64,000 nt of DNA, from the NCBI GenBank assembly GCA_034722055.1, contig JAYENL010000242.1:32001-96000 (forward strand), in the 5' to 3' direction. How positions within the stretch are numbered: the stretch's first letter is position 1; every line of letters begins with the position of its first letter. Below are positions 8,250-63,382 of this stretch, in pieces. Origin of the DNA: Armatimonadota bacterium (GTDB lineage: Bacteria > Armatimonadota > Zipacnadia > Zipacnadales > UBA5352). A program made the position numbers and the translations under genes. The notes beneath the pieces are model-generated. The model saw nothing but the letters and a program-made list of their open reading frames with translations. It was not told the DNA's origin and searched no databases.

Positions 8250-8445
8250 CTCCTGTCAGCCGGCCTCTGAGGTCTGACCTGCATTGGGGACGCAACCCGT
8301 GAAGGGTGGAGCAGCTTTCTCCGCTCCCGCAGCTTCACCTTCAGCCGCCGCTCCGTATCCACGGCGAAGCGCAGCGCGCACTGGGCCACAACCCATCCGC
8401 CGCCGGCCGTTGTCTTGGGCTCCATCCTTCGCGAAGGTCGGGCTT

Positions 8446-8557
8446 CCGGAGATCGCAAGCGATCTCACCGACAAGGACAGACGGCGCACGCACAGGAGTG
8501 TGCGTGCCACGGAGCGGCGCCGTTTGCCGTGCCATCGAGACCGCTTGCGGTCTCCGG
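8446..8557. repeat. Inverted pair of REP-like hairpins flanking a third hairpin
   Basis: CCGGAGATCGCAAGCGATCTC (8446-8466) and reverse-oriented CCGGAGACCGCAAGCGGTCTC (8537-8557); central GCACGCACA-GGAG-TGTGCGTGC. Confidence 0.65.
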
Positions 8558-8589
8558 GAGGCCGGCCTCCGTTCCGGCCAGGCCGTTGC

Positions 8590-9297: not shown

Positions 9298-9315
9298 GGG
9301 CCTCTCCAGCCGACC

Positions 9316-11399: not shown

Positions 11400-11465
11400 T
11401 CCGTACCCCTCCGCACCGGCGCGCCCCACACTGCGCCGGAAGCCTCAGCCCACATGTCGATGGGC

Positions 11466-11494: not shown

Positions 11495-11531
11495 GGCTGG
11501 GCATGCGAGTAGGCTGCGGCCTCAGATTGCC

Positions 11532-12982: not shown

Positions 12983-13193
12983 GCCTACCGTTCGCTATAC
13001 CGACACGGGAACTCCCGCGATCATCTCCACAATCGCGCGCATGATACACCTGCACCGCGAGCAGCGCAAGAGCTGTGCCAGAATGCCCAGGCGCCAGCAC
13101 CTGCCGGTGCAAGCGGCAGGCACGAGGAATCCGCGGCAACCGGGTGAACTATGGTCCGCCGAGTCGATCACCCGGGGACGCATCGGAGGCCCC

Positions 13194-14390
13194 ATGACAG
13201 CCGACATCGAGGTCCGCGAGTACCGCGACGGGGACATCGAGAGCTTCCACGTCCTGCACGATGCGGTCTTCCCGCCGGTGCCGCTGGAGGAGATGCGGCG
13301 GTGGATGAGCCGCGAGGACGTCACTGCCGGGGTGGCGATCCGCGCGGGCGAGGTGGTGGGCGAGATCCCGCTGCACGTCCGGGAGTTCGCGATCCGGCCG
13401 GGCGTGGTCGCCCGCTTCGCGTTCGAGCACTCCGTCTGCGTGCACGAGGACATGCGAGGGCAGGGCATCGGCAGCGCCATCCAGGACGAGATCAAGCGCT
13501 TCATGCCCGGGCGCGCGGAGGTGCTGAGCGTCTACCGCGGTGGCGAGCGTACCCCCGCCTACAACCACTACGACAAGAACGGGCTCAAGGACCTCTGCTA
13601 CATCCGCAACTGGTCGCTGGAGGACCCATCCGCCGTCGCCGAGCCGGTGGGAGAGGCGCAGGCCCTTGAGGCGGTGCTCGAGCGGGCGGAGGCGCTGATA
13701 GCGGTCTTCGAGAGCTCCTTCGGACACGCCGGAGGCTACCAGGTGCGGCGACCCGGCTTCTACGCCGGGGCTATGACGCAGCTCGAGGCCGTGGAGCTGG
13801 GCACCGACTACCGCGTGCTGCTGGTCGGCGACGAGGAGCGACCGGAAGGGCACTGCATCCTCGGCGTACCACCAGGTGAGGGCGCAGTCGCGATCATGGA
13901 GTTGGCAACGCGCACCGGCGACCCGGTCGTGGCCCGGCGACTGCTCCGCGGCGCCTGCCAGGTCGCTGCCGCTGAGGACAGGCCGGTGCGGGCTGAGCTG
14001 CATGACCGTGGGCTCTACCGCCCGGTCTTCGAGGCCCTGGGCTTCGAGCCAGGGGCGCGCGGGGACATGATCATGGCCACGCCGCTGGACTGGACGGGGC
14101 TGGCGGAGATCGTGTGGGCGCCGCAGCCGGAGCTGCAGGGCGTGCGCGTCGAGCTCTGGACGCCGCAGGAGGAGGCCGTGATGCATGACCCGCCCTCCGC
14201 CTCCCGCACGCTGACCGTGGAGATGAAGCACCACCAGGCGGCGCGCTGGCTGCTCTCGCGGCTCGACCTGCGGGCGGGGGTGGAGGGCGAGACGGTGACG
14301 CTCCTCGGCGCCCGGCCGGGCGACGCGGGGGCCCTGGCCCGCGCGATTCCGTTCACCGCCTGGGAGTACCAGGCCATCGATCACATCTGA
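13194..14390 (+). CDS. GNAT family N-acetyltransferase (tandem GNAT, Eis-like)
   Basis: VCVHEDMRGQGIGS acetyl-CoA motif; second degenerate GNAT; GGAGG SD before ATG 13194. Confidence 0.75.
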   Translation: MTADIEVREYRDGDIESFHVLHDAVFPPVPLEEMRRWMSREDVTAGVAIRAGEVVGEIPLHVREFAIRPGVVARFAFEHSVCVHEDMRGQGIGSAIQDEIKRFMPGRAEVLSVYRGGERTPAYNHYDKNGLKDLCYIRNWSLEDPSAVAEPVGEAQALEAVLERAEALIAVFESSFGHAGGYQVRRPGFYAGAMTQLEAVELGTDYRVLLVGDEERPEGHCILGVPPGEGAVAIMELATRTGDPVVARRLLRGACQVAAAEDRPVRAELHDRGLYRPVFEALGFEPGARGDMIMATPLDWTGLAEIVWAPQPELQGVRVELWTPQEEAVMHDPPSASRTLTVEMKHHQAARWLLSRLDLRAGVEGETVTLLGARPGDAGALARAIPFTAWEYQAIDHI

Positions 14391-14814: not shown

Positions 14815-14926
14815 AGTCAGGACCGTCACGCATCGGGCCTGCAGAAGGTGATTCGTGCGGGACAGGGAATGCAATCCAATAATGGCCCGCCAGGCATACC
14901 AATGCTCAGCGATGGAAGGTGTCAGA

Positions 14927-15667
14927 ATGCATCGGTTCTACCGGTTGGTCCAGTTGTCTGGCATGCTGATGATCGTCGGTCTCATACTGACCGGATGTGG
15001 CGCTACAAGCACAGGGAACGGCAAAGTCAGTACGCTCCGCGTCGTTCCTGGACAGACGGTCAGAGCACAGGAGTTGGAGGATGGGAGTTTCGTTGTCACC
15101 TCACAGCCACTTCTCGCCACCGGAGGCTCACCGCTATCCGGCTACACCTGGACCCTGGCGAGCGGCTCAGCGTTTCCGCCTGGAACAACGGTCACGGCGC
15201 CCACAGGCGTCTTCCACGGCAGCGGCAAGGGGCTGATTGCGGGCAAGACCTACTCCTTCAATATGCAGGTCAGCGACGGCACACACACGGCGACCGGGAC
15301 GATCAACCTGGAAGTCGAGCCGGCTCCGACTGATGGCATCGTGCCGTTCACGGTTTTCCAGCAGCCAATGGGAATACCTGTGATCAGGCTGCCCAATGCC
15401 CAGGCCAACAGACCCTACGGCGCGTCCCTGCAGGTCTACAGTGGTGTGCCGCCCTACAGTTGGTTCGAGGACACGTCCTACGCCGGGCGTACAGCCTTCG
15501 AGCTCTCGGGCCTGACGATCGACATGGCCCGCGGCGTGGTCCGGGGAACGGTGATGAACAGCGCTGCCGGTAAGACCCTGCGCTTCCGTATCGTCGTCAA
15601 AGACAGCACTGGAGAGACGGCAGCTACGGAGCCTGGTCGCCCGGTTTACGAGATCGTGGTAGAGTAG
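14927..15667 (+). CDS. Lipoprotein with two putative Ig-like domains
   Basis: Lipobox LTGC; repeats ATGGSP..GYTW and VYSGVPPYSW, each followed by GV..G and F...V.D. Confidence 0.75.
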   Translation: MHRFYRLVQLSGMLMIVGLILTGCGATSTGNGKVSTLRVVPGQTVRAQELEDGSFVVTSQPLLATGGSPLSGYTWTLASGSAFPPGTTVTAPTGVFHGSGKGLIAGKTYSFNMQVSDGTHTATGTINLEVEPAPTDGIVPFTVFQQPMGIPVIRLPNAQANRPYGASLQVYSGVPPYSWFEDTSYAGRTAFELSGLTIDMARGVVRGTVMNSAAGKTLRFRIVVKDSTGETAATEPGRPVYEIVVE

Positions 15668-20237: not shown

Positions 20238-21500
20238 CTACTCGCTCAGGAACATCTCCACCACCGGGATCTCTACCGGCGGCTTCACGATGGGCATCTG
20301 CAGCAGCACGTCGCCATCCTGCTCGGTGAACTGCACCTCGGAGGCGTCGTGCAGAAACTGCGCGTACTCCACCTTCCCCGCCATGCCCGGCAGCCGCAGC
20401 GCCTTCATCGGCCAAGCGAAGATGTGGCAGTAGAGCCGCCGGGTGTCGAAGTTCTGCGTGTAGCGGCAGTCCCGCGGCGCATCGTAGTCCGACATGGTGC
20501 ATCCGTAGATCGAGCGGCTATTGAGCGCCATCCACTCGCCGATGCCGCGCAGGCGGGCCTGCGCGCGCTCATCGAACGTCCCGCGGGCGGTGGGGCCGAC
20601 GTTCAGCAGCAGATTGCCACCCTTCGAGACGCCGTCGATGAGCATGCGCAGGAGCATGGGCACGGACTTCCAGGTGTGCTCGTCGCGATAGTAGCCCCAG
20701 GAGCCGGAGAAGGTCTGGCAGGCCTCCCACAGCACCGGCTTGCCGTCCACCTCATACCAGCCCTCCGGCTGCACCTGCTCGGGCGTCCAGTAGTCCTGCG
20801 CGGTATCGGTGCGGTTGTTGATGAGGATCCCCGGCTGCAGCTCGCGCACCATCTCCACGAGCTTCTCGGACTGCCAGTCGTCCCTGCCCTTCCCGTCGGC
20901 CAGCAGACCCTCGCCCTTCCGCTGGGGGTAGGAGAAGTCGAAGAACACCAGGTCGATCTTGCCGAACCGCGTCATCAGCTCCCGGGTCTGGGCGTGCAGG
21001 TACTCGGCGTACTTGGTGATGTCGCGGTCCTGGTTGGCCCTCAGGAACTCCTCGTCGTTCGACTGCGGATGCACTGCGTCCACGGGGAACTGGGGGTGGT
21101 GCCAGTCGATCAGCGAGTGGTAGAAGCCCACGCGCAGGCCCTCGTTGCGGAAGGCCTCCACCATCGGCGCGATGAGGTCCTGGCCCCACGGGGTATTGGT
21201 GACCTTGTAGTCGGTCTGGTCGGTGTCCCACAGGCAGAAGCCGTCGTGGTGCTTGGTGGTGATGACGAAGTAGCGCATGCCGGCATCCTTCACCATCTTC
21301 GCCCACTCCGCGGGGTCATACAGATCGGGGTAGAAGTGGTCGAAGTACTTCTGGTACTGCTCATCGGTCATCTGCTCGTACTTCTTCACCCACTCGTGGC
21401 GGGCGGCGGAGGCGTAGATGCCCCAGTGGATGAACATCCCGAAGCGGGCCTCGACGAACCATTCGGTATCGCCGGGGGTGGGCTCGATCTCGACAGGCAT
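20238..21500 (-). CDS. Alpha-L-fucosidase (GH29)
   Basis: WFVEARFGMFIHWGIY, TTKHHDGFCLWD, GFYHSLIDWHHP, WEACQT..GSWGY, GGNLLLNVGP; real start is ATG 21500, not 23867. Confidence 0.95.
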   Translation of the reverse strand: MPVEIEPTPGDTEWFVEARFGMFIHWGIYASAARHEWVKKYEQMTDEQYQKYFDHFYPDLYDPAEWAKMVKDAGMRYFVITTKHHDGFCLWDTDQTDYKVTNTPWGQDLIAPMVEAFRNEGLRVGFYHSLIDWHHPQFPVDAVHPQSNDEEFLRANQDRDITKYAEYLHAQTRELMTRFGKIDLVFFDFSYPQRKGEGLLADGKGRDDWQSEKLVEMVRELQPGILINNRTDTAQDYWTPEQVQPEGWYEVDGKPVLWEACQTFSGSWGYYRDEHTWKSVPMLLRMLIDGVSKGGNLLLNVGPTARGTFDERAQARLRGIGEWMALNSRSIYGCTMSDYDAPRDCRYTQNFDTRRLYCHIFAWPMKALRLPGMAGKVEYAQFLHDASEVQFTEQDGDVLLQMPIVKPPVEIPVVEMFLSE

Positions 21501-21647
21501 GATTGTGTCCTCCCGTTGCTTGTGTGGATGACGAGTGACCGTTGCCCATCGGTTCCACGACGGAAGCGAGAGACCTCCAGGCGCAGGACTGGGAGAGAAC
21601 AAGGGGAACTCTGCTGGCGAGTGCATCCGGCTGAGGAGGTGCGCCCG

Positions 21648-24600
21648 ATGCGACGCTCTGGCCCGCTGATCGCCGTGCTGCTGTGTACGTTCCTCGTCCC
21701 GGCCGCCGCTCGCGAGGTCACCATCCCGCTGGAGATCGCCGACGGCGAGGGCTGTCGCTTCGACGCCCGTGGTGCCCAGCTTCTGGCCCGGGTGCCTACG
21801 CCGAACGACGACGGCCTCATCGCCATCGAGGCCGAGGAGACTGTGCGGCACCAGTTCGACCCGAATGTGCGCCACGCCAATACGTCCATGCCTCAGGACC
21901 CGGATTCGTCCGCGGGGAGATACCTCGACCACGCCGTCTACGCCTCGTACCAGTTCATCGCGAGGCAACCGGGCGACTACTGGCTGTGGGTGCGCGTGCG
22001 CACGGGCGAGGGACGCTGGCGCTTCCGCGATGTCGTGAACGGGACTGTCTGGTGGTTCTTCGATGAGCCCGAGCGCAATGAGCCGCCCGACGAGCCCGAC
22101 CGGTGGCACTGGGCCAAACGCCGGAAGGTCACCCTCGGGGAGGGCTTCAACCGCCTGGTGGTCACCGACTACGGCTACGATTTCCCGCAGGTCGATCGCT
22201 TCGTCTTCGCACCGAGCGAGGACTGGCGGCCCGAGGGGATGGGCCCGGAGGTCATCGCAGACATGGCTACGGGCGGCTGGGTCGAGACCTCGCCGCTCAC
22301 CATCCCCGGCCTGCAGCGCCTGGTGCGACTGGAAGGGCTGCCCGGGCAGACGGCTGAGGTTTCGGCCCGGACAGAGGAGTCGGAGCAGTGGCAGCGCGTC
22401 CACCATGGCCTCGTATCCTCCGGCCAGGTGAGGCTCGATGGCACCGCGCCGGCCGGCGACGGCCTGCAGTTCCGCATCTGGCTCTCCGGAGTGAGCTCCA
22501 TGATGCGTGAGGGCAGTCTCGCTGCCGTCGCCGAGGTCGATGAGTCGCGCTACGTCGAGCTTCACAGCGGTCGCACGCGGCTTGTCCTCGATGGCGAGAC
22601 TGCCGGCCTGTTCCTGGTCCAGGACGCCGAGAGCGGCGAGGCCATCGCCATGCCCGGGCGGCCGCAGCCGCTCATCTCCGTGGACTTCAAGCGCGCAGGC
22701 CAGCGCCGGAAGGTGCGCGTCGATCCGGAGGGCGTTACGGAGCTCATCGCCGAGCACGACGAGCGCCGCGGGTGGCTCTGGCAGGAGCAGGAGCCGCAGC
22801 CGGCCATCACCGAGCCGCGCTCGGTCAAGGTCGGCGACAATTCGCTGAGCGCCACCTGGATGTTCGCCATCGAGGGCATGGGCCGGGCTGAGGTGGGCTA
22901 CGCCATCGAGCCGGATGACGCGGGTGGCTTCCGGATGGAGGCACGCGTCAGGCCGCTGGAGGGCCCGGCTGACGTCGTGGCGGTCACCTTCCCGCGCATC
23001 GAGCACTGCCGCCTCGGCCGCAGCGGCCTCGACGACGTCCAGTTCCGCATGCAGTCCTTCGGCCATGAGGCCGTCAACCCCGGCAGCGGACCGATCCGCG
23101 ACGCGTCGTATCTGGGCAGCGTGGTCATGCCCTGGCAGGAGGTCTACGACCGCGACCTCGGCCTTTACGTCGGCGCGCATGATCCCCAGGCCTATAACTG
23201 CCAGTTCGTCTCCGAGGCCGGCGGGCTGGCCGCCGAGCACTTCAGCTTTGCCCTCCGGAAGCTCGACGACATCTCGCCGGGTGCCGAGCGCACATACCCC
23301 TTCGAGCTTGCCGTCCACGGCGGCGGCTGGCACTCCGGCGCCGACCGCTACCGCCGGTGGTTCCGCGAGACCTTCGGCCGAGCAGAGTACCCCGATTGGA
23401 TGCGGACCTTCGACGGCTGGCTGGACCTGCAGGCCGAGAACATGCGGCGGAGGTTCCGCTTCTCGCACCTCCCGGACATCCTGACCCGCGCGCGGGCCAT
23501 CGGCCTGGACTGGACCCAGGTGTGGGGGCAGTTCTCCTACGACGGCGGGCCCTGCTGCCATGACTTCGGCGCCCTCTCGCCCCTGTACGGCGGCCGGCAG
23601 GGCTGGGCGGAGGCGGCCCACGAGATCGTCTCCCGCGGCGGGCACATCGGCGGCTACTTCGTCTACGACCGCCTCGACAGGCTCCCCATCCTCACCGACT
23701 GGTTCCTGGGGCACTTCCGCAAGTCCCAGTACCCGGAGGACACGCCCTGGGTGACTGCCGACTTCTTCACGGACATGATGGTCATCACCGATCCCGGCGG
23801 CGAGCTCCCCGCCTGGCCGCCCCCGCAGGACGAGCTCGACGAGAGGCTGGCGGCGATCGAGGAGCACCAGGAGCTGTACGAGAGTTGGGAGCGCGCCCGG
23901 CCCGTTATCTGGTGGGAGAAGGTCTGGGTGAATGACCCGCAGTGGTGGGAGTATCTGCGCTCATGGATCGTGGACCTTTACGCGCGAGAGTACGGCTGCA
24001 ACGCCTGCTACATCGACGTGCTGGGCTGTGGCGGCGCCATGGAGAGCTACGACCCGCGCCGCGGCCACAACGGCGAGGGCTCGTGGGGGCTCGGGAGGCT
24101 GAACATCGCGCGGGAGGTCGTCGAGGGCGCCCGCGAGGTCTTCCCCGACTACGCGCCCAGCATGGAGGGCATGGGCGACCTGCCCGGCCTCTACTGCGCC
24201 TCGATGTGCAGCGGCGTCTACCGCGGCGCCCGCAACGTCATGCGCTACACCTTCCCCGACCGTATCTTCATCCACGGCCTGGCGAACTCCGGCTCCGGCG
24301 GCTCATCCATCGACCGCTACTGCGAGACCTTCCTGGAGGGCATGCGCTACGACTTCGTCGGCATGCCCGCCGCTGACGGCCTCCGCTTCCTCCGCCTGCA
24401 GCGCTCCTTCACGGCCTGGCTGTATGACGCCCGCTTCATGGACACCCGCGGCCTCACCGTCACCGACCCGCGCGTGAAGGTCCGGCGCCACGACCTGGCC
24501 GACGGCCCGGTCCGCGGCTGCCTGCTGACCATCGTCAACCGCGAGGGCCTCGAGCAGCAGGGGGTAACGTGCGACGAGAGCGCGCTCGGCGGCGTGAGCC

Positions 24601-25562: not shown

Positions 25563-26222
25563 TCAGGGACCCCACTCGACACCGGTCGGCAGGCGCTGCG
25601 GCCCGGGGGCGTTGTTGTAGTTGGTGTCGTAGGGCACCTGGAACCACTTGGAGTGGCCGTCACAGAATCCGAAGTTCGCCCCGCCGTTGTGGCGATCCGG
25701 GATGATGGAGCGGATGTAGCCGTTCTTGACGGGGACACTGGTGTAGATCGAGTAGGAAAGCGAGTACCCCTCGTCGTAGTTGTCGGCGGTGATCATGACC
25801 GCGGCCGGCTTCTCGATCTCGGCCAGCAGGTAGCCATCGACTGCGTTGTTGATGCCGTAAGCCTGGCGGCCGGTGTAGTTCCCGCTCCACTTGTAGCGCC
25901 AGGAGGGGCAGTGGAAGAGCTGGATGTTCTTCACGTACGGGTAGATCGGACATGGCCAGATCATCCCGGCGCTGGTGCGGCCGCCCGGGTACAGAATCGC
26001 ACCACTGACACCAGTGTTGTAATACCGCATGGGCAGCGTCTCGTCGTAGTCCTCTGCGTACATCAAAGTCGCAAGCGTAATCTGCTTGACGTTTGAGAGG
26101 CACGACGACTGTCGCGCCTTCTCCCGCGCCCTCGCGAAGACCGGGAACAGAATTGCCGCCAGGATCGCGATGATGGCGATCACGACCAGCAATTCGATGA
26201 GGGTAAAGCCACTGCGCCGCAT
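25563..26222 (-). CDS. Prepilin-type N-terminal cleavage/methylation, H-X9-DG (DUF1559-like) protein
   Basis: [54 protein letters not shown]. Confidence 0.92.
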
Positions 26223-26425
26223 CGGTCTACCTCCTTGGATGTGCCTTCACTACCTCGCTTGCTAGTCCTTTCGCGGCGAACGTAAGAACCCCTCTCTCAC
26301 GTTGGCGAAAAGTCCGAGCTCCGCACACATTGTCCCAGCCAGCGGTCGCTTGCGCAAGCCGGCGCATGTTGACGACCAGGGCACTCGGCGGCTTCGGCTA
26401 TCGTGAAGATGCGCGACGTGCTCGC

Positions 26426-33868: not shown

Positions 33869-34636
33869 CTACTGCTCGTCCCGGCTCTCGAAGATCTCCC
33901 GGAGCTGCTCGATGGCCCGGCGCTGCAGCCGCGACACGTGCATCTGCGAGATCCCGAGGCGGTCGGCCACCTGCTGCTGGGACAGCTCATGGAAGTAGCG
34001 CAGCACGACGATGATGCGCTGGCGGGGCGTGAGCTTGGCGAGCGCCCAGCGCAGCTCGTCGCGCCGGTCGAGCAGGTCAAGGTTCGGATCCATCTCCCCC
34101 GTGCGATCGGCCACCGAGAGCCCGCTGTCCTCGTCGGCCGTCTCCGGTCCGGTATCCTGCAGGCTCGTCAGGTCGTACTGCGCGGCCACCTCCACAGCCT
34201 CGATAACCGCCTCCTCGGGGACGCTCAGCGCCGACGCCAGTTCCGAGTATGTGGGTGACCGTGCCAGCTTGTGCGTCAGCTCCTCCCGGGCCTCGCGGAC
34301 CTGCAGGCTCAGCTCCTGAACCCGCCTGGGCACACGCAGCCCCCAGGTGGCGTCGCGGAAGAACCGGCGCAGCTCGCCGCGGATGGTGGGAACCGCAAAG
34401 GTGGCGAACTTCGTGCCCCGGTCGGGGTCATAACGGTCAACAGCGTTGACCAGTCCGATGTTTCCCACACTCAGCAGGTCGCCGTAGGGGACGCCCGAGT
34501 CCTTGTACTTGTTGGCTACGTGGCGCACCAGGCCCCTGTGGCGCTGGATGAGGTAGTCCCGCAGTTCGGGGTCGTCGGTCCTGCGGAGAATACGGAAGAG
34601 GTCCTGGGTGGAGAGATCGTCCCATCGGTCCCTCAT
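33869..34636 (-). CDS. SigB/SigF/SigG family RNA polymerase sigma factor
   Basis: IGLVNAVDRYDPDRGTKFATFAVPTIRGELRRFFRD..WGLRVPRR; LSQQQVADRLGISQMHVSRL. Confidence 0.93.
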   Translation of the reverse strand: MRDRWDDLSTQDLFRILRRTDDPELRDYLIQRHRGLVRHVANKYKDSGVPYGDLLSVGNIGLVNAVDRYDPDRGTKFATFAVPTIRGELRRFFRDATWGLRVPRRVQELSLQVREAREELTHKLARSPTYSELASALSVPEEAVIEAVEVAAQYDLTSLQDTGPETADEDSGLSVADRTGEMDPNLDLLDRRDELRWALAKLTPRQRIIVVLRYFHELSQQQVADRLGISQMHVSRLQRRAIEQLREIFESRDEQ

Positions 34637-34640
34637 GGCC

Positions 34641-36846: not shown

Positions 36847-36911
36847 GGGCACCGCTGGCTTGGGGCGCTCGCTCCGGGAGGTGATGCAACCGGGCCGGGG
36901 AAAAGAAGAGC

Positions 36912-42797: not shown

Positions 42798-42960
42798 GGT
42801 TCGGCTCCTTGCGCCGAAGGTATGCGCGTTCGTCGAGCCACGTCGAAGCGTTCACCGCGGTCCGGCGTGAATCCTCTCGGCGCCAGCGGGAAGGGAGTTG
42901 GCGGCTCAGTTGGGAAGAAGCCCCGTGAGCAGAATCCGGGAGCCACGGGAGGTCCATACC

Positions 42961-47213: not shown

Positions 47214-47333
47214 GCTCTCTCCTTGCGCTCCCGGAGCCTGCGGGCACCCTTTCCGGCCATCGCGAAGGGACTCCTCCGCCGGCGAGGAAACTGCGGAAGC
47301 GCACAACGCGATGACAGGTGAGGAGCCAATGTC

Positions 47334-48215
47334 ATGCTCATCGACTGCCACACACACGTCTGCCGCACCCACTCCGTGCCGCGCAGCAATGGCAGCGACT
47401 ACGCCGACGGCGATCAGCTCGTCGGCAGGCTCGATGACCTCGGGATCGACATGGCGGTGGTGCTCGCGGGCGTCAGCCCTGAGTGCCGGAATCGCTACGT
47501 GCCGCCGGAGGATGTCGTGGAGGTCTGTAAGGCGCACTCGGACCGGCTGATCCCCTTCTGCAACGTCGATCCCCGCGCCGGTTCCAACAGCCCGGAGACG
47601 GACTTCACCCGCTTCTTCGACACTTACGTGGAGATGGGTTGCAGGGGCGTGGGCGAGATGACTGCCAACCTCGACTTCGACGATCCGATGTGCTGGAACC
47701 TCTTCGGGCACATCTCCGACTACGGCCTGCCGATGACCATCCACATCGCGCCCAGCCGCGGCGGCGCCTACGGGCTCTATGACGACCTCGGCCTGCCGCG
47801 GCTGGAGAGGACGCTGCAGGAGTTCCCGGACCTCACCATCCTCGGCCACTCGCAGCCGTTCTGGGCGGAGATCAGCGCCGACGTCACTGAGGAGACGCGC
47901 AACGGCTACCCCGACGGCGAGGTCACGCCCGGGCGCCTCGTGGAGCTGTTCGAGAGCTACGAGAACCTGTGGGGCGATCTCTCCGCCGGCAGCGGCCACA
48001 ACGCCATCAGCCGCGACCCTGAGTTCGGGAATCAGTTCATCGAGCAGTTTCAGGACCGGTTGATGTTCGGCACCGACATCTCATTCCCGGAGTACGAGCC
48101 GCCGCTGCCGGACTACTTCCGCTCGCTGAGGGGCCAGATCTCCGACGAGGCCTGGGAGAAGGTGGCCTGGCGCAACATCGACCGGCTGCTGGATCTGGGA
48201 GTGGCCCAAGGCTGA
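47334..48215 (+). CDS. Amidohydrolase family protein
   Basis: IDCHTH, GVGE, TIH, ILGH, DLSAGSG, DRLMFGTD. Confidence 0.88.
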   Translation: MLIDCHTHVCRTHSVPRSNGSDYADGDQLVGRLDDLGIDMAVVLAGVSPECRNRYVPPEDVVEVCKAHSDRLIPFCNVDPRAGSNSPETDFTRFFDTYVEMGCRGVGEMTANLDFDDPMCWNLFGHISDYGLPMTIHIAPSRGGAYGLYDDLGLPRLERTLQEFPDLTILGHSQPFWAEISADVTEETRNGYPDGEVTPGRLVELFESYENLWGDLSAGSGHNAISRDPEFGNQFIEQFQDRLMFGTDISFPEYEPPLPDYFRSLRGQISDEAWEKVAWRNIDRLLDLGVAQG

Positions 48216-48238: not shown

Positions 48239-49393
48239 CTAGGCCCAAGCGCCATCGAGCAGCTCATCAGGAACTGGCAACCCAACGCTGGCACGCACGT
48301 GGAGGTGCCCGAGCGCCGCCATCTCACGGATCATAGCGGCGACCTCGCTCTCGGCGAATGGTGGGCTCCGGCGCTGCTTCCAGTCCATAACGTACTCGAA
48401 GACCTCGGCTTCAGTCGGCGGCTCCCGTCCGCTCCGCAACTGATCGGCCGCGAAATGCACGGTCCCTGCAAGTTCCGCGGTGCGAGTGTCCATTCGCGCG
48501 AAGAGGTCGTGTAGCTGGTCAATCACGTCTTCACAGCGTCGAAGCTCATCGCGGTACTCATCGCGAGCGTCAGCGTAGGTAGGGCCTGGATGCGCGCGGA
48601 ACATCCGCCCACTGCGCTCTTCGCGAAGCAGGCCGTTATTGATGAGCAGGCTCAGGACGCCCTTGAGCTCATCCGAGTACGGGCCGTAGCTTGATCTGCG
48701 GAATCGAAGCCCGGTGGGCAGCCCCAGCGCCGTGGCAAAGTAGGCGAGCTTCTGCAGTTTCGTGCGGCCTGTGGGAGGCGTGTAGGGCTCCGCCTCCAGC
48801 CGACGCAAGACCTCGATCACGGCAATCAGACCAGGTTCGAGTGAGGCCCCAGCGCCGTCACCATGGTCGGTCTTGATAGGTTCTTCGAAGAAGTCTAGGG
48901 TGAGTTGCTCCGGCGGTGCATCCCAAGGAGCGTAGAGCTCGACAGGGATGTGCAACTCCCCGAGAAGGCGGTATAGTGTCGGCCCGACGATGCGCCAATC
49001 CAGTTGGCCGTTTCCACACCCCAATGGTGGCACAGCTATCGACTCAATTCCCCATTCGTCAGCATGGGCAATCAGGTAACGCATCCCCTCGATAATGTCG
49101 CTGATCCGGGAGAAGGCTCGCCAGTGCCCCTTGGTGGGGAAAAGCACTATGTGCGGTGGCTTCTCTCGTTCGAATAGGTAGGGCTTGCCGAGCTGAACCT
49201 CCCCGGCCTTACAGCGCCGAACATAGTCCTCGTACATGTCCGGGAACCGCTCACGGAAGCCTAGGGCAATGCCCTTGCCCATCACGCCAACGCAGTTTAC
49301 GGAGTTCACCAGCGTCTGAGCATTGGATTTGAACAGATCGCCTTGGACGACACGAACCCCCGTTCCCCGATCGTTAGCGGAGAAAGAACACAT
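48239..49393 (-). CDS. darG: Macrodomain antitoxin DarG (DNA ADP-ribosyl glycohydrolase)
   Basis: GDLFKS..QTLVNSVNCVGVMGKGIA..F, FPTKGHWR, SIAVPPLGCGNGQLDW; C-terminal KLQKLAYF...YGPYS; start 49393 or 49399, overlapping darT. Confidence 0.92.
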   Translation of the reverse strand: MCSFSANDRGTGVRVVQGDLFKSNAQTLVNSVNCVGVMGKGIALGFRERFPDMYEDYVRRCKAGEVQLGKPYLFEREKPPHIVLFPTKGHWRAFSRISDIIEGMRYLIAHADEWGIESIAVPPLGCGNGQLDWRIVGPTLYRLLGELHIPVELYAPWDAPPEQLTLDFFEEPIKTDHGDGAGASLEPGLIAVIEVLRRLEAEPYTPPTGRTKLQKLAYFATALGLPTGLRFRRSSYGPYSDELKGVLSLLINNGLLREERSGRMFRAHPGPTYADARDEYRDELRRCEDVIDQLHDLFARMDTRTAELAGTVHFAADQLRSGREPPTEAEVFEYVMDWKQRRSPPFAESEVAAMIREMAALGHLHVRASVGLPVPDELLDGAWA

Positions 49394-50015
49394 CGGCATC
49401 TACCTCCACTGGCAGGGCAGGATACGCCTGCGCGACTAGCGCGGCAAGACGTGCGCGCGCTTTCGCACTCGACACGGTTACACGAACGATGTGCTCCGGA
49501 TCCACTCTCTCGGGAACGAGAACCTCAGCGCACTTGATCCTTTTGCGCCTGGCCTTCTCGATCGGATCTTCGTGATCCCATGAACGTGCAAAGACAAGTT
49601 CCGCATCGAGGTGCGCAAGACCTGCTGGCGACGGATAGAAGCGGGTCAACTTCGCTGCTGCATTGCCGTCGGCAATAACCACGCCCTCAAGTCGCAGCAC
49701 GCCAGGTGCCACACCGATGACGCAGAGGCGTTCGTGATCGTGATGCAAGCAGTACATCATCGGGTTGCGCGGGCAGAAATACAGGTTCGCATAGGAATGG
49801 AGTGGCAGCGAGGTCCCGTCGTGCATTTGCAGCTTGCGGCGGGCGCGTCGTCGTTGGACACTCTCGTTCGCCACGGAAACATGTTCATGCCCTCGGGCGG
49901 CAACATGCGACAGGATCCCCAGTTCGAGTATCGAACGCAGATTCGACTGCGACGCAATATAGTGTAATTGTCCGACTTCGTCAAGTCGCAATCGCATTTC
50001 CCCCGTTTCTCGCAC
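49374..50015 (-). CDS. darT: DarT ssDNA ADP-ribosyltransferase toxin (DUF4433)
   Basis: NLRSILELGILSH, VQRRR, LHSYANLYFCPRNPMMY, ADGNAA, KCAEVLVP with catalytic Glu; directly upstream of darG. Confidence 0.9.
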   Translation of the reverse strand: MRETGEMRLRLDEVGQLHYIASQSNLRSILELGILSHVAARGHEHVSVANESVQRRRARRKLQMHDGTSLPLHSYANLYFCPRNPMMYCLHHDHERLCVIGVAPGVLRLEGVVIADGNAAAKLTRFYPSPAGLAHLDAELVFARSWDHEDPIEKARRKRIKCAEVLVPERVDPEHIVRVTVSSAKARARLAALVAQAYPALPVEVDADVFFLR

Positions 50016-54056: not shown

Positions 54057-54848
54057 TCAGGGCATCGGCCAGTCTCCCTGGAACCCGGCGGCGTTGGGCT
54101 TGGTGGGCGGGCCCCAGTCACAGCACACGCCCGGCTCGCTCCCCCACGCCTCGGAGTGGTCGGGCGTGCCCTCATGGGCGAAGGGGCCGGCCGTCTTCTT
54201 GAACCACTCTGCATGGTAGTCGCAGAAGAGGAAGTTCTTGCCGCCATTATGCCACATCTCGTCGGGCTTGAGTGGATCGTCATGGGACTGGTAGACGTTC
54301 TGGCCCAGGGCGTCACCCCACGCGCCGGGCGGGTTGTTGCCCTTCTCGAAACACATGACCGTGGCGTGAGGCGCCGGAATGTCGTCCTTGTACCCGCCGA
54401 TCGCGATGGTGGTGCCCCCCACGACCATCGGCCTCTGGGTGTACTGCGCGATGGCGTAAGACCTCGCTTCTCGCGCCTTCTCGTTGGGATTGTCGGGACA
54501 GATCAGGAGGCTCTCGTTCCGCAGATAGCTCATGATCGAGACGTCCCAGGTGGCGACTGAGGGGTCCGGAACATTGCGTATCGCCTCCGGCGGCGGTGTC
54601 CACGTGGGTGCCACGCCCGGGTGGGTTATGGACCAGGGGGGGATGAAGCCGCCGTTGTCCTGGATGTAGCCCTCGATGGCCTGCCCGATCTGCTGCATGT
54701 TCGAGAGGCACCGGGCCTGACGCGCCTTCGCCCGCGCCGACGCCAGGACCGGGAAGAGAATGGCCACCAGCACGGCGATGATGCCAATGACGGTCAGAAG
54801 TTCAATCAGGGTAAAGCCTGTGCGACGCGTTTGCGTTGCCAACGACAT
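54057..54848 (-). CDS. Prepilin-type DUF1559-like protein (H-X9-DY variant)
   Basis: [49 protein letters not shown]. Confidence 0.88.
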   Translation of the reverse strand: MSLATQTRRTGFTLIELLTVIGIIAVLVAILFPVLASARAKARQARCLSNMQQIGQAIEGYIQDNGGFIPPWSITHPGVAPTWTPPPEAIRNVPDPSVATWDVSIMSYLRNESLLICPDNPNEKAREARSYAIAQYTQRPMVVGGTTIAIGGYKDDIPAPHATVMCFEKGNNPPGAWGDALGQNVYQSHDDPLKPDEMWHNGGKNFLFCDYHAEWFKKTAGPFAHEGTPDHSEAWGSEPGVCCDWGPPTKPNAAGFQGDWPMP

Positions 54849-54880: not shown

Positions 54881-55555
<675 letters not shown>

Positions 55556-55838
55556 GCTCCATCCATCTCCACGCGAAAGGCCGCCCTCATGCCATCTGGT
55601 CGCCGACAGGTGGCGGCGTTCTTCGCTACGCCACCGGGCTCGTGCACGTGTGTCTACTAAACAGCCGACGGTGCCGTTTGTTCCTTGCGCCGGACACTCC
55701 GCCTTCCAGTGGAAGAACTGGACGCGGACCGGCGCAACCGGCGCCGGCCCGCGCTGTGTTCCTCGCGCTCTAACGGCTAGTGCTAAGTCGCAGAAGTTCG
55801 CGTAGCTTCCTACGTCCCGACAAGACGCGTGCCCGCCA

Positions 55839-55918
55839 TGGAGGGGCCGCCGCGAGCGAAGCGAGCGGGGCGCGATCAGGAGCGGTAGCGACTGACCGCG
55901 CAGGTTCCACCCCGGCCC
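55839..55918. repeat. Structured repeat, copy 2
   Basis: TGGAGGGGCCGCCG...AGGTTCCACCCCGGCCC. Confidence 0.8.
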
Positions 55919-56013
55919 ACTGGAGACCTTCGGTCTCACGGGCTTCCAGCCCGACCATCAGCGCAGGCGCCCCCGCCTGCGCGCCGTTTGGGCCCTGGGT
56001 AGAGCCATCTCCC

Positions 56014-58232: not shown

Positions 58233-61200
58233 TTACTGCGCCGTCTGCTGCAGGTCCTCCTCCCCCGCCAGGATGGCGCGCCCGCGTGCCCCGAAGTCGC
58301 CCTTCACCGGACTGGGCAACGTGCGCCACAGCAGGTACTGCTTGCGCAGCAGGTTGATGAAGTTGCGCGTCACCCGAATCCACGACGCCTCGTCACCGCT
58401 CTCCCGACGGATCACAGCCCGAATCTGGAAGATCTCCGCGTCCTCCGTGGGCACCGTCTCGATCGTCAGGTGCTCCGACACCCCCAGGTCATAGGGCGCC
58501 AGCCAGACCATCACGGAGAGCGCAAATCCCTCCCCAAGCTCGAACTCCTCGGCGTCCAGCCCCAGGTCACCTGTGGAGAAGTTGCCCAGCGAGTAGTCGG
58601 CATGCGCCCCCAGGTAGTCGAGAAGGAAGACGTTTACCCCCAGCGCCTGGTCGCCCGTCACCGTGAAGGGCAGGTTCATGCGCATGACGTCGTCCACAGG
58701 CTCGGGCAGCGTCCAGCGGCGCTCGATGCCCGGCATGGCGATATTGGAGGCCACCCGGGCCGGATAGATGACCGACAGCAGTACCGTGACCATGATCATC
58801 AGGGTGCTGCCCACGGCCGCCAGCGATGAGTAGTTGAGGTAGAGGCCGCCCAGCGCGCCGGTCATCAGCAGCACCTTCGCGGAGGCCTGGCCCACCAGGT
58901 AGCCCGCTACCGCACCCAGCACCGCATAGACCGACGCCTCGGCCACGAAGAGGGCGGCGATGTGCGTGGGCGCCAGGCCCAGGGAGCTGTAGATGTGGAT
59001 CTCGTTGGTGCGCTCGTAGACCGAGCCCAGCATGGTGTTGAGGACGATCAGGGCTGCGATGAGCACAGGGATGAGCACGTCGCTGGCGCCCTGCACCCCG
59101 GTCGTGCCCACGGCGCTGCACAGGTAGGTCTGGTCATCGACCCCGGCGTAGAGGTTCAGCTCGACACGCGACATCAGGTTTTCGAGGTGCGTCAGGACGC
59201 TCTCGGCGTCGGGAATGCCGATGGCCACCGAGCGCAGCGTGCCCCCGGCGTTGACGACGAAGTTGTAGGGCACAATGAGCACAGCGTCCGGGGTGAGGTG
59301 GATGTACTCCCGGAGCTCGTCCTCGCTCATCTGGTCCTCGCCGGCCTGCATGGACTGCCGCTGCGCCTGCTGCTCCTGCATCAGCAGGTAGTCCACAGGG
59401 GTGATCTGCTCCCCATCGAGGTCCTCGATGCGCTTGAAGCGGTCGCTGTCGATGATCCCCAGCACTCGCAGGCGGGTGCCGAAGACCGACACGAAGACGT
59501 TCCCCACATCCTGGGGCTGGATGTTGAGCTTCTCGGCCATCTCCTGGGGCACGATGCAGGCCAGGGTGTCATCCTCGGTGAACCACCGACCACCCTCATC
59601 CAGCGCCCTCTGGGGCTCGCTGATCATCGCCTCCTCGGGCGTCAGCCCCACCATGGCGGTGGCGGAGTAGCTGTCCCCCGCCCGCGACACGTTCACGAAG
59701 GACTGCTCGCCGACGCGACTGGAGAAGTACCATGCCCGCGGGGCCACAGAGTACTCATCGCCGAACTCATTGCGCATCACCCGCGTGGTCGGCTGCCCGA
59801 TAGGCGTCCAGGTCTTCTCCCGGATCATGATGCCGTTATACGCCGCGGTGTGCGGCAGCCGGATGCGGTTGGTGCGAATCGTCTGCTTGATGGAGGTCGT
59901 TGACAGCACCGTGAAGGTCAGCAGCACCAGTGTGGTGCAGGTCAGCAGCGTTCGGATCTTGCGCCGGCGCATGTTCGAGATACCCAGACCGAAGGCCGCC
60001 GCCGAGGCTGAGAGCCGACCCACGTCCGCCTCGCGCACCCCCGTCTGCTCCCAGCGCATCTCGCGCATCTGCTCCTCGAACTTCTGCACCACGATCCCCA
60101 CCACGATGATTGTCAGCGCCAGGATGATGAAGGCCAGCAGGATGATCATGGGCGTGAAGGTGATGGCGAATGCGGGATGCACCAGGCCGATGAGGATGAA
60201 GATGCCCACAAAGAACGCCACTGTGCCGAGGATCTGTCCCTTGATCTCGCGCGCAGCCAAGAAGAGCCGTTCGGCAAACACCCCGAAGGGCATCAGCAGC
60301 GCCAGGTAGAACAGCACACCCTTGACCACGTCGTCGGCGGTCTTGCGGACATCCGGGTAGGCTCGGGACTCGTAGCTCCACGCCGACCGCGCGGCTGTGA
60401 AGAACTCATCGTACTTGCGCTCCCGGAGGTACTGCTGCGACAGCTTCAGGTACTCCAGCGCCTCCGCGTGGGCCCGCTCCACCCGCGCGTTGGTGATCCC
60501 GTGCTTCGAGAGCTTGGCCATGCGGTTGTCGTCGAGCTGCCACATGTCCATGGCCACCCGGTAGGGCGTGGCGTGAAGCGACGGGTGGCGGTCCACCAGG
60601 TAGCCCTCCCCCAGCTCCTCCAGCTCCGTGGGATTGATCAGCAGGAAGCGCAGTCCCAGGAGGCTGGCGCCCATGGTGATCTTGACCTTGGTGCCCGACG
60701 GAGCGAAGACCACGGCCACCGGCTCGTAGCTGGACGTGAACTGCTGCGGCGGAAGCGGCAGGCAGTAGCCGTACTCGTAGGGAGCCGCATCGGTCTGGGC
60801 GTCGTAGACGTGCAGCTCCCGCAGGAGCTGGAAGAACCGCTGGTCCACCATATCGAAGATGGCCACCGGCTTGCAGTCGAACATCACCACCGTTACCGGC
60901 TTAACCTCCTGATCCATGGCCACCTTGTTCGGGTAGGCCTCGGCGCCGGTCACCCCCAGGTCGGGGGCCATACGCACCCGCCCGTCCTCCTCGTCGAGCA
61001 GGTAGGCCTCAACGGTGATGGTGCCGCCCCGCGCCCGGGAGTTGGGCAGTCCCGGCAGGTAGAACCTGCCGTCCTCGTCCACGATGTCGAAGATCTCGCT
61101 GCGCACGCCCATGGAGGTCTTGGAGCCGGTGCGCGCCACCGCTACCGCGCCCGGTAGGGGATCATCGGGGAACAGGCTCTCGCGGGGGTTGAACTGCACC

Positions 61201-63191
61201 GCCCGGCCCTTGATCTCCACGAAGTTGTCGGCCAGCTCCAGATCGTAGAGATCGCGCGGATCGTCGATGGACACCAGGTCCAGCAGCAGACAGGACAGAA
61301 AGCGCGTCTGCTCCACGAGGTTGCTTATCTCCACGTGCTCGATGCGGTCCATCGGCGTGTCAACCCACGGACGCGAATCGTCCACGGTCGCGAAGCCCAG
61401 CCCGGGAATGCCCGCCAGCGTGGCCACCTCATTCGACAGCGCCAGCTTGCCGGCCATGTAGGTCTGCCAGCTCTTGCCCTGAATGGCGTTGATCCCGTCC
61501 ACCAGACGCACCGGAACGCCCAGGGCGGTGGCGATGAGGTCGGAGTACTCCCGGGCCTTCTTGCCGATGTCCGAGAACTTCCACTGGATGCTCTCACTGT
61601 AGTTGTAGAAGTAGGCCTTGTAGAAGATGCCGAAGGTGTCGTTGTGGCTGGACAGATCCACCGAGAACCACAGGTATATCTTCTTCTCGGAGAAGTCCAG
61701 GGTGTCAACGAGGTTCCAGGCCGCCTCCTTCACCCGTGCCAGCATCTGCTTTTTCGTCTCAAGGGGGGCGTCCCGATCCACCTCTCGGGCCTCCCGGAGC
61801 ACCTCCCGCGCACGCTCCACGGCCTGGTCGATCTCCGGACCAACCGCCTCGAACTCCCGCACCAGCTCCTGGCGCTCGGCGAGCTCCTCCTCCGTCAGCC
61901 GATACTCCTCCAGCTTGCCGGCGTTGGGGTCATCGTGCTTGGCCGCACGCACCACCTTCCCGAGCTTGTGTGCGCGCTTGGATGCGTAGGTGACGGCCCT
62001 GTTGATGCGCCCCAGCGCGCGCATGCGCTCGTCTGCCAGCTCCTCGGCCGTCTTCTCCTCCTCCAGCCGGTCGGGATCCTCCCAGACGCGGGCAATGGCG
62101 TCCTCCAGCTCAGCACGGGCGTCACCGACGAGGTTGAACATGATCTCCACGCGCCGCTCGCCATGAGCGCCGCGGATGAACTGGCGGAGGAAGTGCTTGG
62201 TGCCGGCCAGGCCTTCGAAGTGCCCGGAGGTGGCCAGGAACACGACCGTGCGCTTGGGGGGCTGATCCACGAAGGCCTCAGCGAGCTGCATCAGCGCCGC
62301 AATGGAGCAGGCATTCTCGGCGCCGGGGGCCTGGTCGGGCGTCACGGCGATGGAGTCGTAGTAGGCCTGGATGACGACGCGCTGGTTGCTCAGCCGCGGG
62401 TCCGTACCCGGGAGGGTGGCCACCACGTTCTCGCCCTCCACCCGCCGCCACTGCATATCACAGGCGATCCTCACCGGCACCTCGTCGCGGGACATCAGCA
62501 GGCCCATCAGGTAGTCGGCGGCCTCGCGGGCGATCCAGTAGCGGGGGATATCCACGGGGATGGAGAGGAACTTCGCCTCCGCCTCCCCACGGATGGTCTC
62601 CTCCGGTTCGATAAAGAGCACCGCCTTGGTCCCCAGCAGTGGCCCGTTGAACCACTCCGTCTGGCAGTTGAAGTCCACCATGGTGATGGAGTCGGTGACC
62701 TCCAGCCCGTTGAAGGCCCGCAGGTTGCCGGGACCGGCGTAGATGAGGTTTCCCTCGATGCCCCCGGTCGGGGTCTGGGGCGGGCGCACCAGGTTGGGCC
62801 ATATCGGCAGCATCCCGAAGCTGGTGCCGTCGTCAGCAACGGTGATGGAGGCGTAGCGCCCCTGCTCGTCGGGCTCGGCCATGGGTATGACCAGGGGGAA
62901 GCTCTCGAGGTGCACGTCCTCCAGGCCCAGCGCCCGGAACTGCTCGGCGATCGTCCGGGCGGCCTTCTTGCAGCCGTCGTAGCCGGTCACGCGCGACTGC
63001 AGGGCCTCGAAGTCCGCGATGAGCTGGCGCATGTGCTGCTCATCGACGCCGGAGGCCGCCATCTCGTAGTCGGTATCCGACTCGAGGACGATCTCCTCCT
63101 CGTGGCCGCCCTGCCCCCATACGGGGGCTGCGGCGACGGCAAGCGCCATGATGCATGTCGGCCAGACTATCGCCCTCAGTGGACGAAGCAC
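58233..63191 (-). CDS. 1652-aa FtsX/MacB-like ABC permease fused to an M28-peptidase-like extracytoplasmic domain
   Basis: Signal peptide; SRVTGY, GENVVATLPG, AYYDS..APGA; NMRRRKIRTLLT; NTMLGSVYERTNEIHIYSSLGLAP; YPARVAS. Confidence 0.82.
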   Translation of the reverse strand: MLRPLRAIVWPTCIMALAVAAAPVWGQGGHEEEIVLESDTDYEMAASGVDEQHMRQLIADFEALQSRVTGYDGCKKAARTIAEQFRALGLEDVHLESFPLVIPMAEPDEQGRYASITVADDGTSFGMLPIWPNLVRPPQTPTGGIEGNLIYAGPGNLRAFNGLEVTDSITMVDFNCQTEWFNGPLLGTKAVLFIEPEETIRGEAEAKFLSIPVDIPRYWIAREAADYLMGLLMSRDEVPVRIACDMQWRRVEGENVVATLPGTDPRLSNQRVVIQAYYDSIAVTPDQAPGAENACSIAALMQLAEAFVDQPPKRTVVFLATSGHFEGLAGTKHFLRQFIRGAHGERRVEIMFNLVGDARAELEDAIARVWEDPDRLEEEKTAEELADERMRALGRINRAVTYASKRAHKLGKVVRAAKHDDPNAGKLEEYRLTEEELAERQELVREFEAVGPEIDQAVERAREVLREAREVDRDAPLETKKQMLARVKEAAWNLVDTLDFSEKKIYLWFSVDLSSHNDTFGIFYKAYFYNYSESIQWKFSDIGKKAREYSDLIATALGVPVRLVDGINAIQGKSWQTYMAGKLALSNEVATLAGIPGLGFATVDDSRPWVDTPMDRIEHVEISNLVEQTRFLSCLLLDLVSIDDPRDLYDLELADNFVEIKGRAVQFNPRESLFPDDPLPGAVAVARTGSKTSMGVRSEIFDIVDEDGRFYLPGLPNSRARGGTITVEAYLLDEEDGRVRMAPDLGVTGAEAYPNKVAMDQEVKPVTVVMFDCKPVAIFDMVDQRFFQLLRELHVYDAQTDAAPYEYGYCLPLPPQQFTSSYEPVAVVFAPSGTKVKITMGASLLGLRFLLINPTELEELGEGYLVDRHPSLHATPYRVAMDMWQLDDNRMAKLSKHGITNARVERAHAEALEYLKLSQQYLRERKYDEFFTAARSAWSYESRAYPDVRKTADDVVKGVLFYLALLMPFGVFAERLFLAAREIKGQILGTVAFFVGIFILIGLVHPAFAITFTPMIILLAFIILALTIIVVGIVVQKFEEQMREMRWEQTGVREADVGRLSASAAAFGLGISNMRRRKIRTLLTCTTLVLLTFTVLSTTSIKQTIRTNRIRLPHTAAYNGIMIREKTWTPIGQPTTRVMRNEFGDEYSVAPRAWYFSSRVGEQSFVNVSRAGDSYSATAMVGLTPEEAMISEPQRALDEGGRWFTEDDTLACIVPQEMAEKLNIQPQDVGNVFVSVFGTRLRVLGIIDSDRFKRIEDLDGEQITPVDYLLMQEQQAQRQSMQAGEDQMSEDELREYIHLTPDAVLIVPYNFVVNAGGTLRSVAIGIPDAESVLTHLENLMSRVELNLYAGVDDQTYLCSAVGTTGVQGASDVLIPVLIAALIVLNTMLGSVYERTNEIHIYSSLGLAPTHIAALFVAEASVYAVLGAVAGYLVGQASAKVLLMTGALGGLYLNYSSLAAVGSTLMIMVTVLLSVIYPARVASNIAMPGIERRWTLPEPVDDVMRMNLPFTVTGDQALGVNVFLLDYLGAHADYSLGNFSTGDLGLDAEEFELGEGFALSVMVWLAPYDLGVSEHLTIETVPTEDAEIFQIRAVIRRESGDEASWIRVTRNFINLLRKQYLLWRTLPSPVKGDFGARGRAILAGEEDLQQTAQ

Positions 63192-63382
63192 GTTTCCCTC
63201 ACCGCCTCTGGAGAGATAGGAAGACCCGGCGGCCGAAGCACAGCCCGACAGAGACAGAGCTGGCGCGCGACACTTCGCCGCGCGCCAGCCTTACGCCTGC
63301 CCCGCTGCGCGCAGCGCCGCCGACCGCCCGCTCGGGCGGTAGCATTCCGGCGGCCCGCCGCTGCCGGCCTGCGTCCCAGCGG

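Follow-up and report, generated by a model that had tools for sequence, protein, structure and literature searches.

Which sigma factor, if any, reads a two-block motif that stands before gene after gene at a single locus? The question is raised by a 64,000-nt stretch of an Armatimonadota genome (the window; positions 32001-96000 of contig C242 in the source assembly, here G000), where an initial annotation had listed twelve copies of AGG-N18/19-GAA and had read them as the -35/-10 elements of a sigma factor like those of extracytoplasmic function (ECF). Bacteria are expected to start most of their transcripts from the housekeeping sigma factor. Here, we show that the AGG/GAA signal lies far above chance throughout the genome and forms the commonest promoter-like class in G000, with predicted sites about three times as numerous as those of the sigma70 type. 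Sequence comparisons suggest that the motif is very probably a -35/-10 promoter read by RNA polymerase carrying a SigH (Spo0H-family) sigma factor.

G000 comprises 6.14 Mb with 68% GC in 330 contigs and is 92.7% complete. Families of Armatimonadota (f1, f22 and so on) and genomes (G054, G200 and so on) are given as coded in the analysis. The comparison with promoter usage in Bacillota and Actinomycetota rests on published papers.

A dominant promoter-like class

The motif was counted in 2,451 upstream regions of G000, namely those that have 60 nt or more of intergenic DNA, a complete 300 nt upstream and a score >20, in copies placed 20-120 nt before the start codon. AGG-N19-GAA was found in 538 of these regions and AGG-N18-GAA in 297, against 45-81 regions for each of the other 21 spacers and 54-66 in shuffled sequence. 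The spacer peak at 18/19 that the initial annotation had expected from a genome-wide gapped search thus rises above both the neighbouring spacers and the shuffles. On the antisense strand the exact motif occurred in 17-18 of 1,432 regions, and inside operons in 8 and 23 of 725. An unbiased search for gapped pairs of 3-mers put the AGG/GAA pair at the top (z 60); the sigma70 pair TTG-N20-TAT came far behind (89 regions).

A two-block expectation-maximization (EM) fit, called here the H model, gave about 1,098 H-type sites in the same regions (1,069 at posterior >0.5, 860 at >0.9). The sigma70 model, obtained by the same procedure from the seeds TTGACA/TATAAT, gave about 354 (342 at >0.5, 281 at >0.9); it requires both boxes, and extended -10 promoters could escape its detection. 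About 45% of the regions are thus predicted to be H-type and 14% sigma70-type, and only 47 of the 2,451 hold both. The H model found sites in 59 of the 1,432 antisense regions (9 at >0.9), compared with 431 on the sense strand (299 at >0.9). Divergent genes each need a promoter, and when their whole intergenic region was scored, 563 of 921 were H-only, 146 sigma70-only, 17 both and 195 neither, so that the H class stays ahead even if all 195 unassigned genes are counted as sigma70. Among divergent genes, the H-type share climbs with the GC content at third codon positions (GC3), from 0/7 below 0.78 through 0.45 and 0.54 to 0.78 of 534 genes above 0.90, which suggests that long-resident genes are most often H-type.

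Anatomy of the predicted promoter

The consensus of the fitted model is G-V-AGG-W followed by s-G-G-C-GAA, with a spacer of 18 nt in 344 sites and of 19 nt in 730, G at -2 (0.81), W after AGG (0.70) and GGC before GAA. The motif lies on the sense strand, its distance to the start codon peaks at 40-49 nt, and the median distance from GAA to the start is 52 nt. The share of 839 sites with a pyrimidine-purine step is 0.46 at +9/+10 after GAA, compared with 0.19-0.30 at other positions; the sigma70 class has the same step at +7 after the -10 box in 0.43 of 266 sites. We infer that transcription would start at the +9/+10 step. Leaderless use of the motif in G000 was considered and rejected, as matches within 20 nt of starts were at background level. 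Promoters of SigB/SigF are of the GTTT...GGGTAT type, and the fitted model is without such boxes, as the initial annotation had already remarked of the window sites.

SigH as the likely reader

That SigH reads the motif is suggested by its resemblance to the published consensus. Work on Listeria uses the sigma-H consensus R(A/C)AGGRWWW-N11/12-RR(A/C)GAAW, in which AGG and GAA stand 18/19 nt apart, and Listeria -10 boxes are often GGCGAAT (PMC4754846). The AGG-GAA spacers of Clostridioides difficile, counted by eye in Table 3 of PMC7438776, are 19 nt for spo0A, 18 for spoIIAA, 19 for spoVS and 18 for minC. Our model matches both the -35 element R(A/C)AGGR and the -10 element RR(A/C)GAAW, the final W reaching only A 0.17 and T 0.22.

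G000 carries two intact sigH-like genes, whose products score 234.1 and 209.9 bits against TIGR02859, and the best PDB match for SigH is a sigma-H factor (E 1.4e-26). The domain build, Pfam r2 plus r4_2, is the two-domain build of ECF factors; despite it, SigH is a distinct known family with this consensus. Among the 41 columns of regions 2 and 4.2 that are conserved in 90% or more of 54 Bacillota rows, SigH1 keeps 41 and SigH2 33. SigH1 (contig C130) precedes tRNA-Thr/Tyr/Thr, tuf, secE and nusG, and in Bacillota too sigH lies upstream of the tuf-secE-nusG region; SigH2 (contig C284) precedes glyQS. In a tree built from 42 of 87 rows with a midpoint root only, SigH1 groups with Bacillota and Actinomycetota rows in a clade of 38 rows (support 100/98), and SigH2 lies outside it. 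Armatimonadota records under the labels WS1 and Ca. Zipacnadia come closest to SigH1 (96, 79 and 77% identity). Region 4 of SigH would bind the AGG box and region 2 would bind and melt the GGCGAA box, with transcription starting about 10 nt past GAA and leaders mostly of 30-45 nt.

The reader may be SigH1, SigH2 or both. In f22, which has the strongest motif excess, only a SigH2-like gene was found (5/5 genomes), and in f9, f24, f26 and f29 the motif occurs with only a SigH1-like gene found, including two single-contig genomes; either lineage can therefore accompany the motif. Identity between families of the order is 65-79% for SigH2, against only 50-53% for SigH1. A separate sub-motif for each paralogue was rejected, as the Bayesian information criterion favours one class (32,395 vs 32,685). 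Assignment by the final T of GAAT was likewise abandoned, for the T shares of the excess (21 of 45 genomes) do not discriminate: they are 0.21-0.38 in f1, 0.07-0.22 in the SigH2-only f22, 0.09-0.18 in f9 and 0.28-0.50 in the SigH1-only f24/f26. Autoregulation of sigH2 was also discarded; its leader has an exact AGG-N18-GAA, but at posterior 0.36 and with no match in G054 or G192. Both f6 and f7 have three SigH-like genes, and the SigH1-like gene of f6 has no tRNA gene within 1.5 kb.

Known sporulation targets of SigH gave no support. Neither spoVG nor Spo0A_C was found in the 93%-complete G000, and spoVS lies downstream of a co-oriented gene. The window holds an operon (33869-35464, minus strand) of an anti-anti-sigma factor, an anti-sigma kinase and a SigB/F/G-family sigma factor (33869-34636), between a rarA-like gene and alaS; the anti-anti-sigma gene is present in 20/22 class genomes. 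Control of this operon by SigH was rejected, as its site (35531-35555, 11.2 bits) is unconserved in 20 relatives (best 9.7).

Distribution across the Armatimonadota

Among 251 Armatimonadota genomes, 179 have SigH when presence is defined as a match at E up to 1e-30; at that threshold it is missing from f11 (0/23), f15 (0/3), f16 (0/4), f23 (0/5) and most of f35 and f17. Motif excess, defined as z>3 when copies with spacer 18 over the whole genome are compared with copies with spacer 21, which has the same codon phase, was seen in 50/179 genomes with SigH vs 2/72 without it. The two genomes in excess without a SigH match have a completeness of 80% and 88%, and in both a contig starts about 1 kb from nusG. 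In the class of the window, 24/26 SigH-bearing genomes are in excess, with ratios of 1.32-3.72. In samples of 79-100 kb with 25-60 regions per genome, the fitted H fraction was 0.29-0.47 in seven classmates (sigma70, 0-0.26), 0.23-0.36 in f9, f22, f26 and f29, 0-0.10 in f14, f17, f21, f24, f27 and f33, and 0-0.02 in two SigH-less genomes. SigH thus appears necessary but not sufficient, and the expansion appears lineage-specific.

One member of the class serves as a loss control. G200 is 95% complete and has a spacer ratio of 1.02; in 250 upstream regions (494 kb), its H fraction is 0.000 and its sigma70 fraction 0.46, and a de novo motif search returned sigma70 words only. The only SigH-like gene found there is a degenerate SigH2 orthologue before glyQS, with 22/41 conserved columns and a very long branch. 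For 20 orthologue-like pairs that are H-type in G000, the G200 member was never H-type; 10 were sigma70-type and 10 unassigned. By comparison, 19 of 31 such pairs in seven other relatives were H-type and one was sigma70-type.

dnaG-sigA, sigH1 and the division of labour

The operon dnaG-sigA is SigH-dependent in Listeria (PMC4754846) and is served by two sigma-H promoters in B. subtilis (PMC2824700). In G000 it has an 18.5-bit H-type site and no sigma70 site in the region scored. A site of at least 12 bits (12.6-18.5) was found in 14/17 class genomes, including 13/13 relatives of f1-f5 and f7 (12.6-18.4 bits), and in 16/22 genomes overall, while 1% of 150 coding stretches reach 12 bits; five genomes outside the class scored 7.5-15.9 bits upstream of dnaG. 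G200 lacks the site (6.5 bits). The sigH1 gene itself has a sigma70 promoter of 23 bits in G000 and of 20-23 bits over G000 and 3/3 relatives, and in C. difficile sigH is transcribed from a SigA promoter (PMC7438776). With SigA transcribing sigH1 and SigH transcribing dnaG-sigA, each sigma factor would therefore drive the gene of the other.

Sigma70-type promoters in G000 precede the genes for 16S and 6S RNA and most lead tRNA genes. With labels assigned from protein motifs, they also precede rpoB, ftsZ, ffh, uvrB, the ATP synthase operon, both groESL operons and several small basic ribosomal-like genes. Gene labels from short motifs were unreliable (those for MurA, PNPase, Ffh and Obg were mostly false) and were left unused, except that of a 444-aa Ffh. 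For tuf, gyrB and the GAPDH gene, neither class was found within 170 nt. In 19 sampled regions, 53 confident H-type leaders include those of oxidoreductases, aminotransferases, sugar kinases, aldolases and a solute-binding protein as well as primase, RNase PH, RNase E/G and a thioredoxin-domain gene, and 14 sigma70-type leaders include those of ribosomal L31, FtsK, RecJ, NifU and Rrf2. A crude call marks 245 long proteins as having a signal peptide, of which 133 are H-only and 20 sigma70-only; the 36 prepilin-type leaders include 15 H-only, 5 sigma70-only and 2 with both classes. The H class also covers glutamine synthetase (glnA) and transketolase (tkt). The accessory programme of the initial annotation was therefore drawn too narrowly: the class comprises about a thousand gene units and takes in dnaG-sigA, glutamine synthetase, transketolase, RNase PH and RNase E/G. 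That information-processing genes keep sigma70 promoters is supported. In the proposed division, SigA would keep the rRNA, tRNA, 6S, ribosomal-protein, rpoB, ftsZ, groESL and ATP synthase promoters and transcribe sigH1, and SigH would transcribe most catabolic, secreted and transport units and many metabolic ones together with the dnaG-sigA operon.

SigA of G000 (C59:27324-29405, minus strand) is a protein of 693 aa in which inserted bacterial Ig-like (Big_5) domains separate region 1.2 from region 2. Its frame measures 690-787 aa in 22/22 genomes searched of f1-f7 and 559-647 aa in f24, f26 and f29, and the best SigA match in other families has at most about 450 aa. Our literature search found no report of this insert.

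Alternative explanations

It could be argued that the motif belongs to one of the ECF factors of G000, which has 25 sigma region-2 matches, most of them ECF-sized, and whose SigH itself shares the two-domain build. We consider this very improbable. ECF genes usually carry their own promoter, yet no strong exact site lies upstream of any of 23 sigma genes (the best, 10.5 bits, is not GAA; for ECF genes inside operons, the scoring covered only the 300 nt before the gene itself), two ECF leaders show GGAAC...CGTT boxes instead, the phylum pattern tracks SigH, and the consensus is the published SigH one. It is just as hard to credit that the primary SigA, with the Ig-like insert and long frames of f1-f7, reads a second promoter type directly or via an activator: f9 (ratio 1.8) and f22 (2.1-4.7) are in excess despite short SigA frames next to dnaG (G017, 373 aa; G029, 453 aa), a clean TTGACA/TATAAT class coexists with the motif, and G200 loses the motif while its sigma70 promoters rise. 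Nor do we give more than a very slight chance to a transcription-factor site, or to a purine-rich leader or ribosome-binding-site by-product that is no promoter at all. AGG does resemble a Shine-Dalgarno word, leaders are purine-rich, and some matches inside genes reach 11-14 bits; but spacers peak sharply and at 18/19 alone, the motif has an asymmetric, strand-specific form, its place 40-50 nt upstream is too distant for a ribosome-binding site, an initiator-like step stands at +10, and co-occurrence with sigma70 sites is rare. The claim of the initial annotation therefore holds in that these are probably -35/-10 elements of an alternative sigma factor, and needs correction as to which one: the consensus match, the sigH-like genes, the dnaG-sigA target, the phylum co-occurrence and G200 together point to SigH rather than ECF.

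How much of transcription SigH would carry is a separate matter. We propose that in this class SigH may be a second, probably essential primary sigma factor that reads most promoters, including that of the sigA operon, with SigA serving largely the growth machinery and sigH1, and that this take-over is reversible, one lineage having let SigH decay and reverted to sigma70; we hold this to be evenly balanced between right and wrong. A serious competitor, to which we incline somewhat less than to disbelief, leaves the identity of SigH untouched and supposes that the class is used mainly in stationary phase or starvation, as SigH is in Bacillota, where it is a minor factor, and adds inducible expression atop weak, undetected sigma70 promoters. 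In C. difficile, SigH acts in the transition phase (PMC7438776), the targets lean to scavenging functions, rRNA, tRNA and ribosomal-protein promoters are sigma70-type, and the two-box sigma70 model could miss extended -10 promoters. Such inducible use sits less well with the rarity of both classes at divergent genes (17/921 over the whole intergenic region), with dnaG-sigA, glnA and tkt having no sigma70 site in the regions scored, and with the G200 orthologues, 10/20 of which have detectable sigma70 promoters, so that such promoters are visible when present.

Several observations weigh against a dominant SigH class. The 4,354 genes of G000 are our own calls, made with a hexamer model. Neither class was assigned in 1,087 of the 2,451 upstream regions, and the H model also finds sites in 64/725 operon-internal regions at posterior >0.5 (21 at >0.9). 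The fitted model shows no preference for T after GAA, the final letter of the Bacillota GAAT. Both SigH proteins of G000 fall below the curated TIGR02859 cut-off of 294.8 bits, which is passed by 1/251 Armatimonadota, 2/3 Bacillota and 0/2 Actinomycetota tested. There is no excess in 129/179 SigH-bearing genomes, and SigH alone is therefore no predictor of expansion; relatives are not independent, so the phylum counts carry no p-values. The dnaG site is lacking in G054 (2.8 bits) and G192 (5.2 bits, partial stretch). G200 is a single event, and its assembly is without the tuf region, the best tRNA matches being other tRNAs or tmRNA, so that sigH1 is not necessarily lost there.

The sites in the window

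All twelve listed sites were recovered at their coordinates and strands, eight with a spacer of 18 nt and four with 19 nt, and they score 8.9-16.5 bits on the genome-trained model (Table 1). The initial annotation had placed GAA 38-68 nt before the start in ten of them; we find 39-57 nt in nine, and 73 nt for the site at 8317 (67 nt with an upstream ATG), 128 nt for that at 55681 and 82-124 nt for that at 63274. Raw motif counts over the whole window are unremarkable (N18 20, N19 30, N16 31, N22 48) because coding background dominates.

Table 1. Predicted SigH-type sites before genes of the window
Feature	Position	Strand	Downstream gene and remarks
Site, spacer 18	8317..8340	-	Gfo/Idh/MocA-like oxidoreductase 7074-8243; 14.8 bits; predicted transcription start ~8307
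Site, spacer 18	13125..13148	+	GNAT gene 13194-14390; 9.6 bits
Site, spacer 18	14846..14869	+	Ig-domain protein gene 14927-15667; 13.4 bits
Site, spacer 18	21553..21576	-	alpha-L-fucosidase-family gene 20238-21500; 13.7 bits
Site, spacer 18	21585..21608	+	DUF6259-like 1278-aa gene 21648-25484; 12.3 bits; back-to-back with 21553-21576
Site, spacer 18	26270..26293	-	prepilin-type (H-X9-DG) gene 25563-26222; 12.0 bits
Tandem second exact match, spacer 18	26246..26269	-	prepilin-type gene 25563-26222; 11.2 bits; absent from the initial annotation
Site, spacer 19	42851..42875	-	894-aa gene 40113-42797; 12.8 bits
Site, spacer 19	42892..42916	+	GH123-family gene 42961-44907; 10.9 bits
Site, spacer 19	47251..47275	-	beta-helix gene 44997-47210; 11.8 bits
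Site, spacer 18	47266..47289	+	amidohydrolase 47334-48215; 13.2 bits; overlaps divergent site 47251..47275
Weakest listed site, spacer 18	55681..55704	-	prepilin-type gene 54881-55552, 128 nt; 8.9 bits, posterior 0.61
Stronger site, spacer 19	55905..55929	-	farther upstream of prepilin-type gene 54881-55552; 15.2 bits; absent from the initial annotation
Site, spacer 19	63274..63298	-	M28-peptidase/FtsX-domain gene 58233-63191; 16.5 bits

For the 894-aa protein, Pfam and NCBIfam gave no family within the thresholds applied. As had been noted from the window alone, prs, iscS, ssrS and the kinase gene have sigma70-type promoters (14.7, 16.0, 15.2 and 15.5 bits). Of the genes reported as free of the motif, the MFS gene starting at 12982, divergent from the GNAT gene, is sigma70-type, and the gene at 20048 shows neither class clearly.

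A 15.2-bit SigH-type site (36879-36902, plus strand) stands just beyond the 3' end of the 6S RNA gene (36915-37113, minus strand) and points back through it. Its product could be an antisense RNA or a long leader of the gene at 37346; alternatively, the site may be a by-product of the 6S terminator. On the minus strand at 48239-50015, a DarG antitoxin above the NCBIfam cut-off is preceded by a 213-aa open reading frame that may be its DarT partner, and a 14.9-bit SigH-type site (49599-49623) lies inside this frame, upstream of darG. The window has three prepilin-type genes (25563-26222, 54057-54848 and 54881-55552), and a simple pattern finds 41 genome-wide.

Relation to known systems

The predicted system resembles SigH of Listeria monocytogenes, B. 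subtilis and C. difficile in having AGG...GAA 18-19 nt apart with GGC before GAA, a SigH-type dnaG-rpoD operon, sigH behind a SigA promoter and the conserved SigH residues. It differs from them in its predicted size of about 1,000 units, its two paralogues, its lack of a final-T preference, the failure to find Spo0A_C or SpoVG, and its phylum. Their published regulons are small: C. difficile has 41 (PMC7438776) or 69 genes (bioRxiv 2020.08.10.244764), B. subtilis 48 according to PMC12456013, and the Listeria study (PMC4754846) six promoters; no SigH motif was detected in Thermotoga (PMC3636130). The largest SigH regulon that we found in the literature consulted is that of Sporomusa sphaeroides KIAC, with 322 SigH starts (16.1% of motifs, SigA 69.8%), where the motif AGGA/GAAT precedes metabolic genes well past sporulation (PMC12456013), as it does here. 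Unlike in Sporomusa, where SigA is dominant, the ratio in G000 is inverted (about 45% vs 14%), with the reservation that predicted sites are compared with mapped starts. With group 4 (ECF) sigma factors the system shares the two-domain build and a bipartite promoter of tight spacing, and it departs from them in its consensus, in that no self-promoter was found, and in that SigH is conserved phylum-wide without a tie to an anti-sigma locus.

Our literature searches, which covered mainly open papers, found no paper on this promoter class in Armatimonadota, and no promoter analysis was found in the passages searched of PMC10290634 and PMC11535203. New here are the dominance of the H-type over the sigma70 class, at about three to one, and the G200 loss control. 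The promoter model covers a poorly known, polysaccharide-degrading phylum and should be of use for both annotation and enzyme expression. If our reading is true, a normally minor sigma factor that reads most promoters, together with a sister genome that has reverted, would offer a natural test of how promoters are handed over by the hundred between sigma factors.

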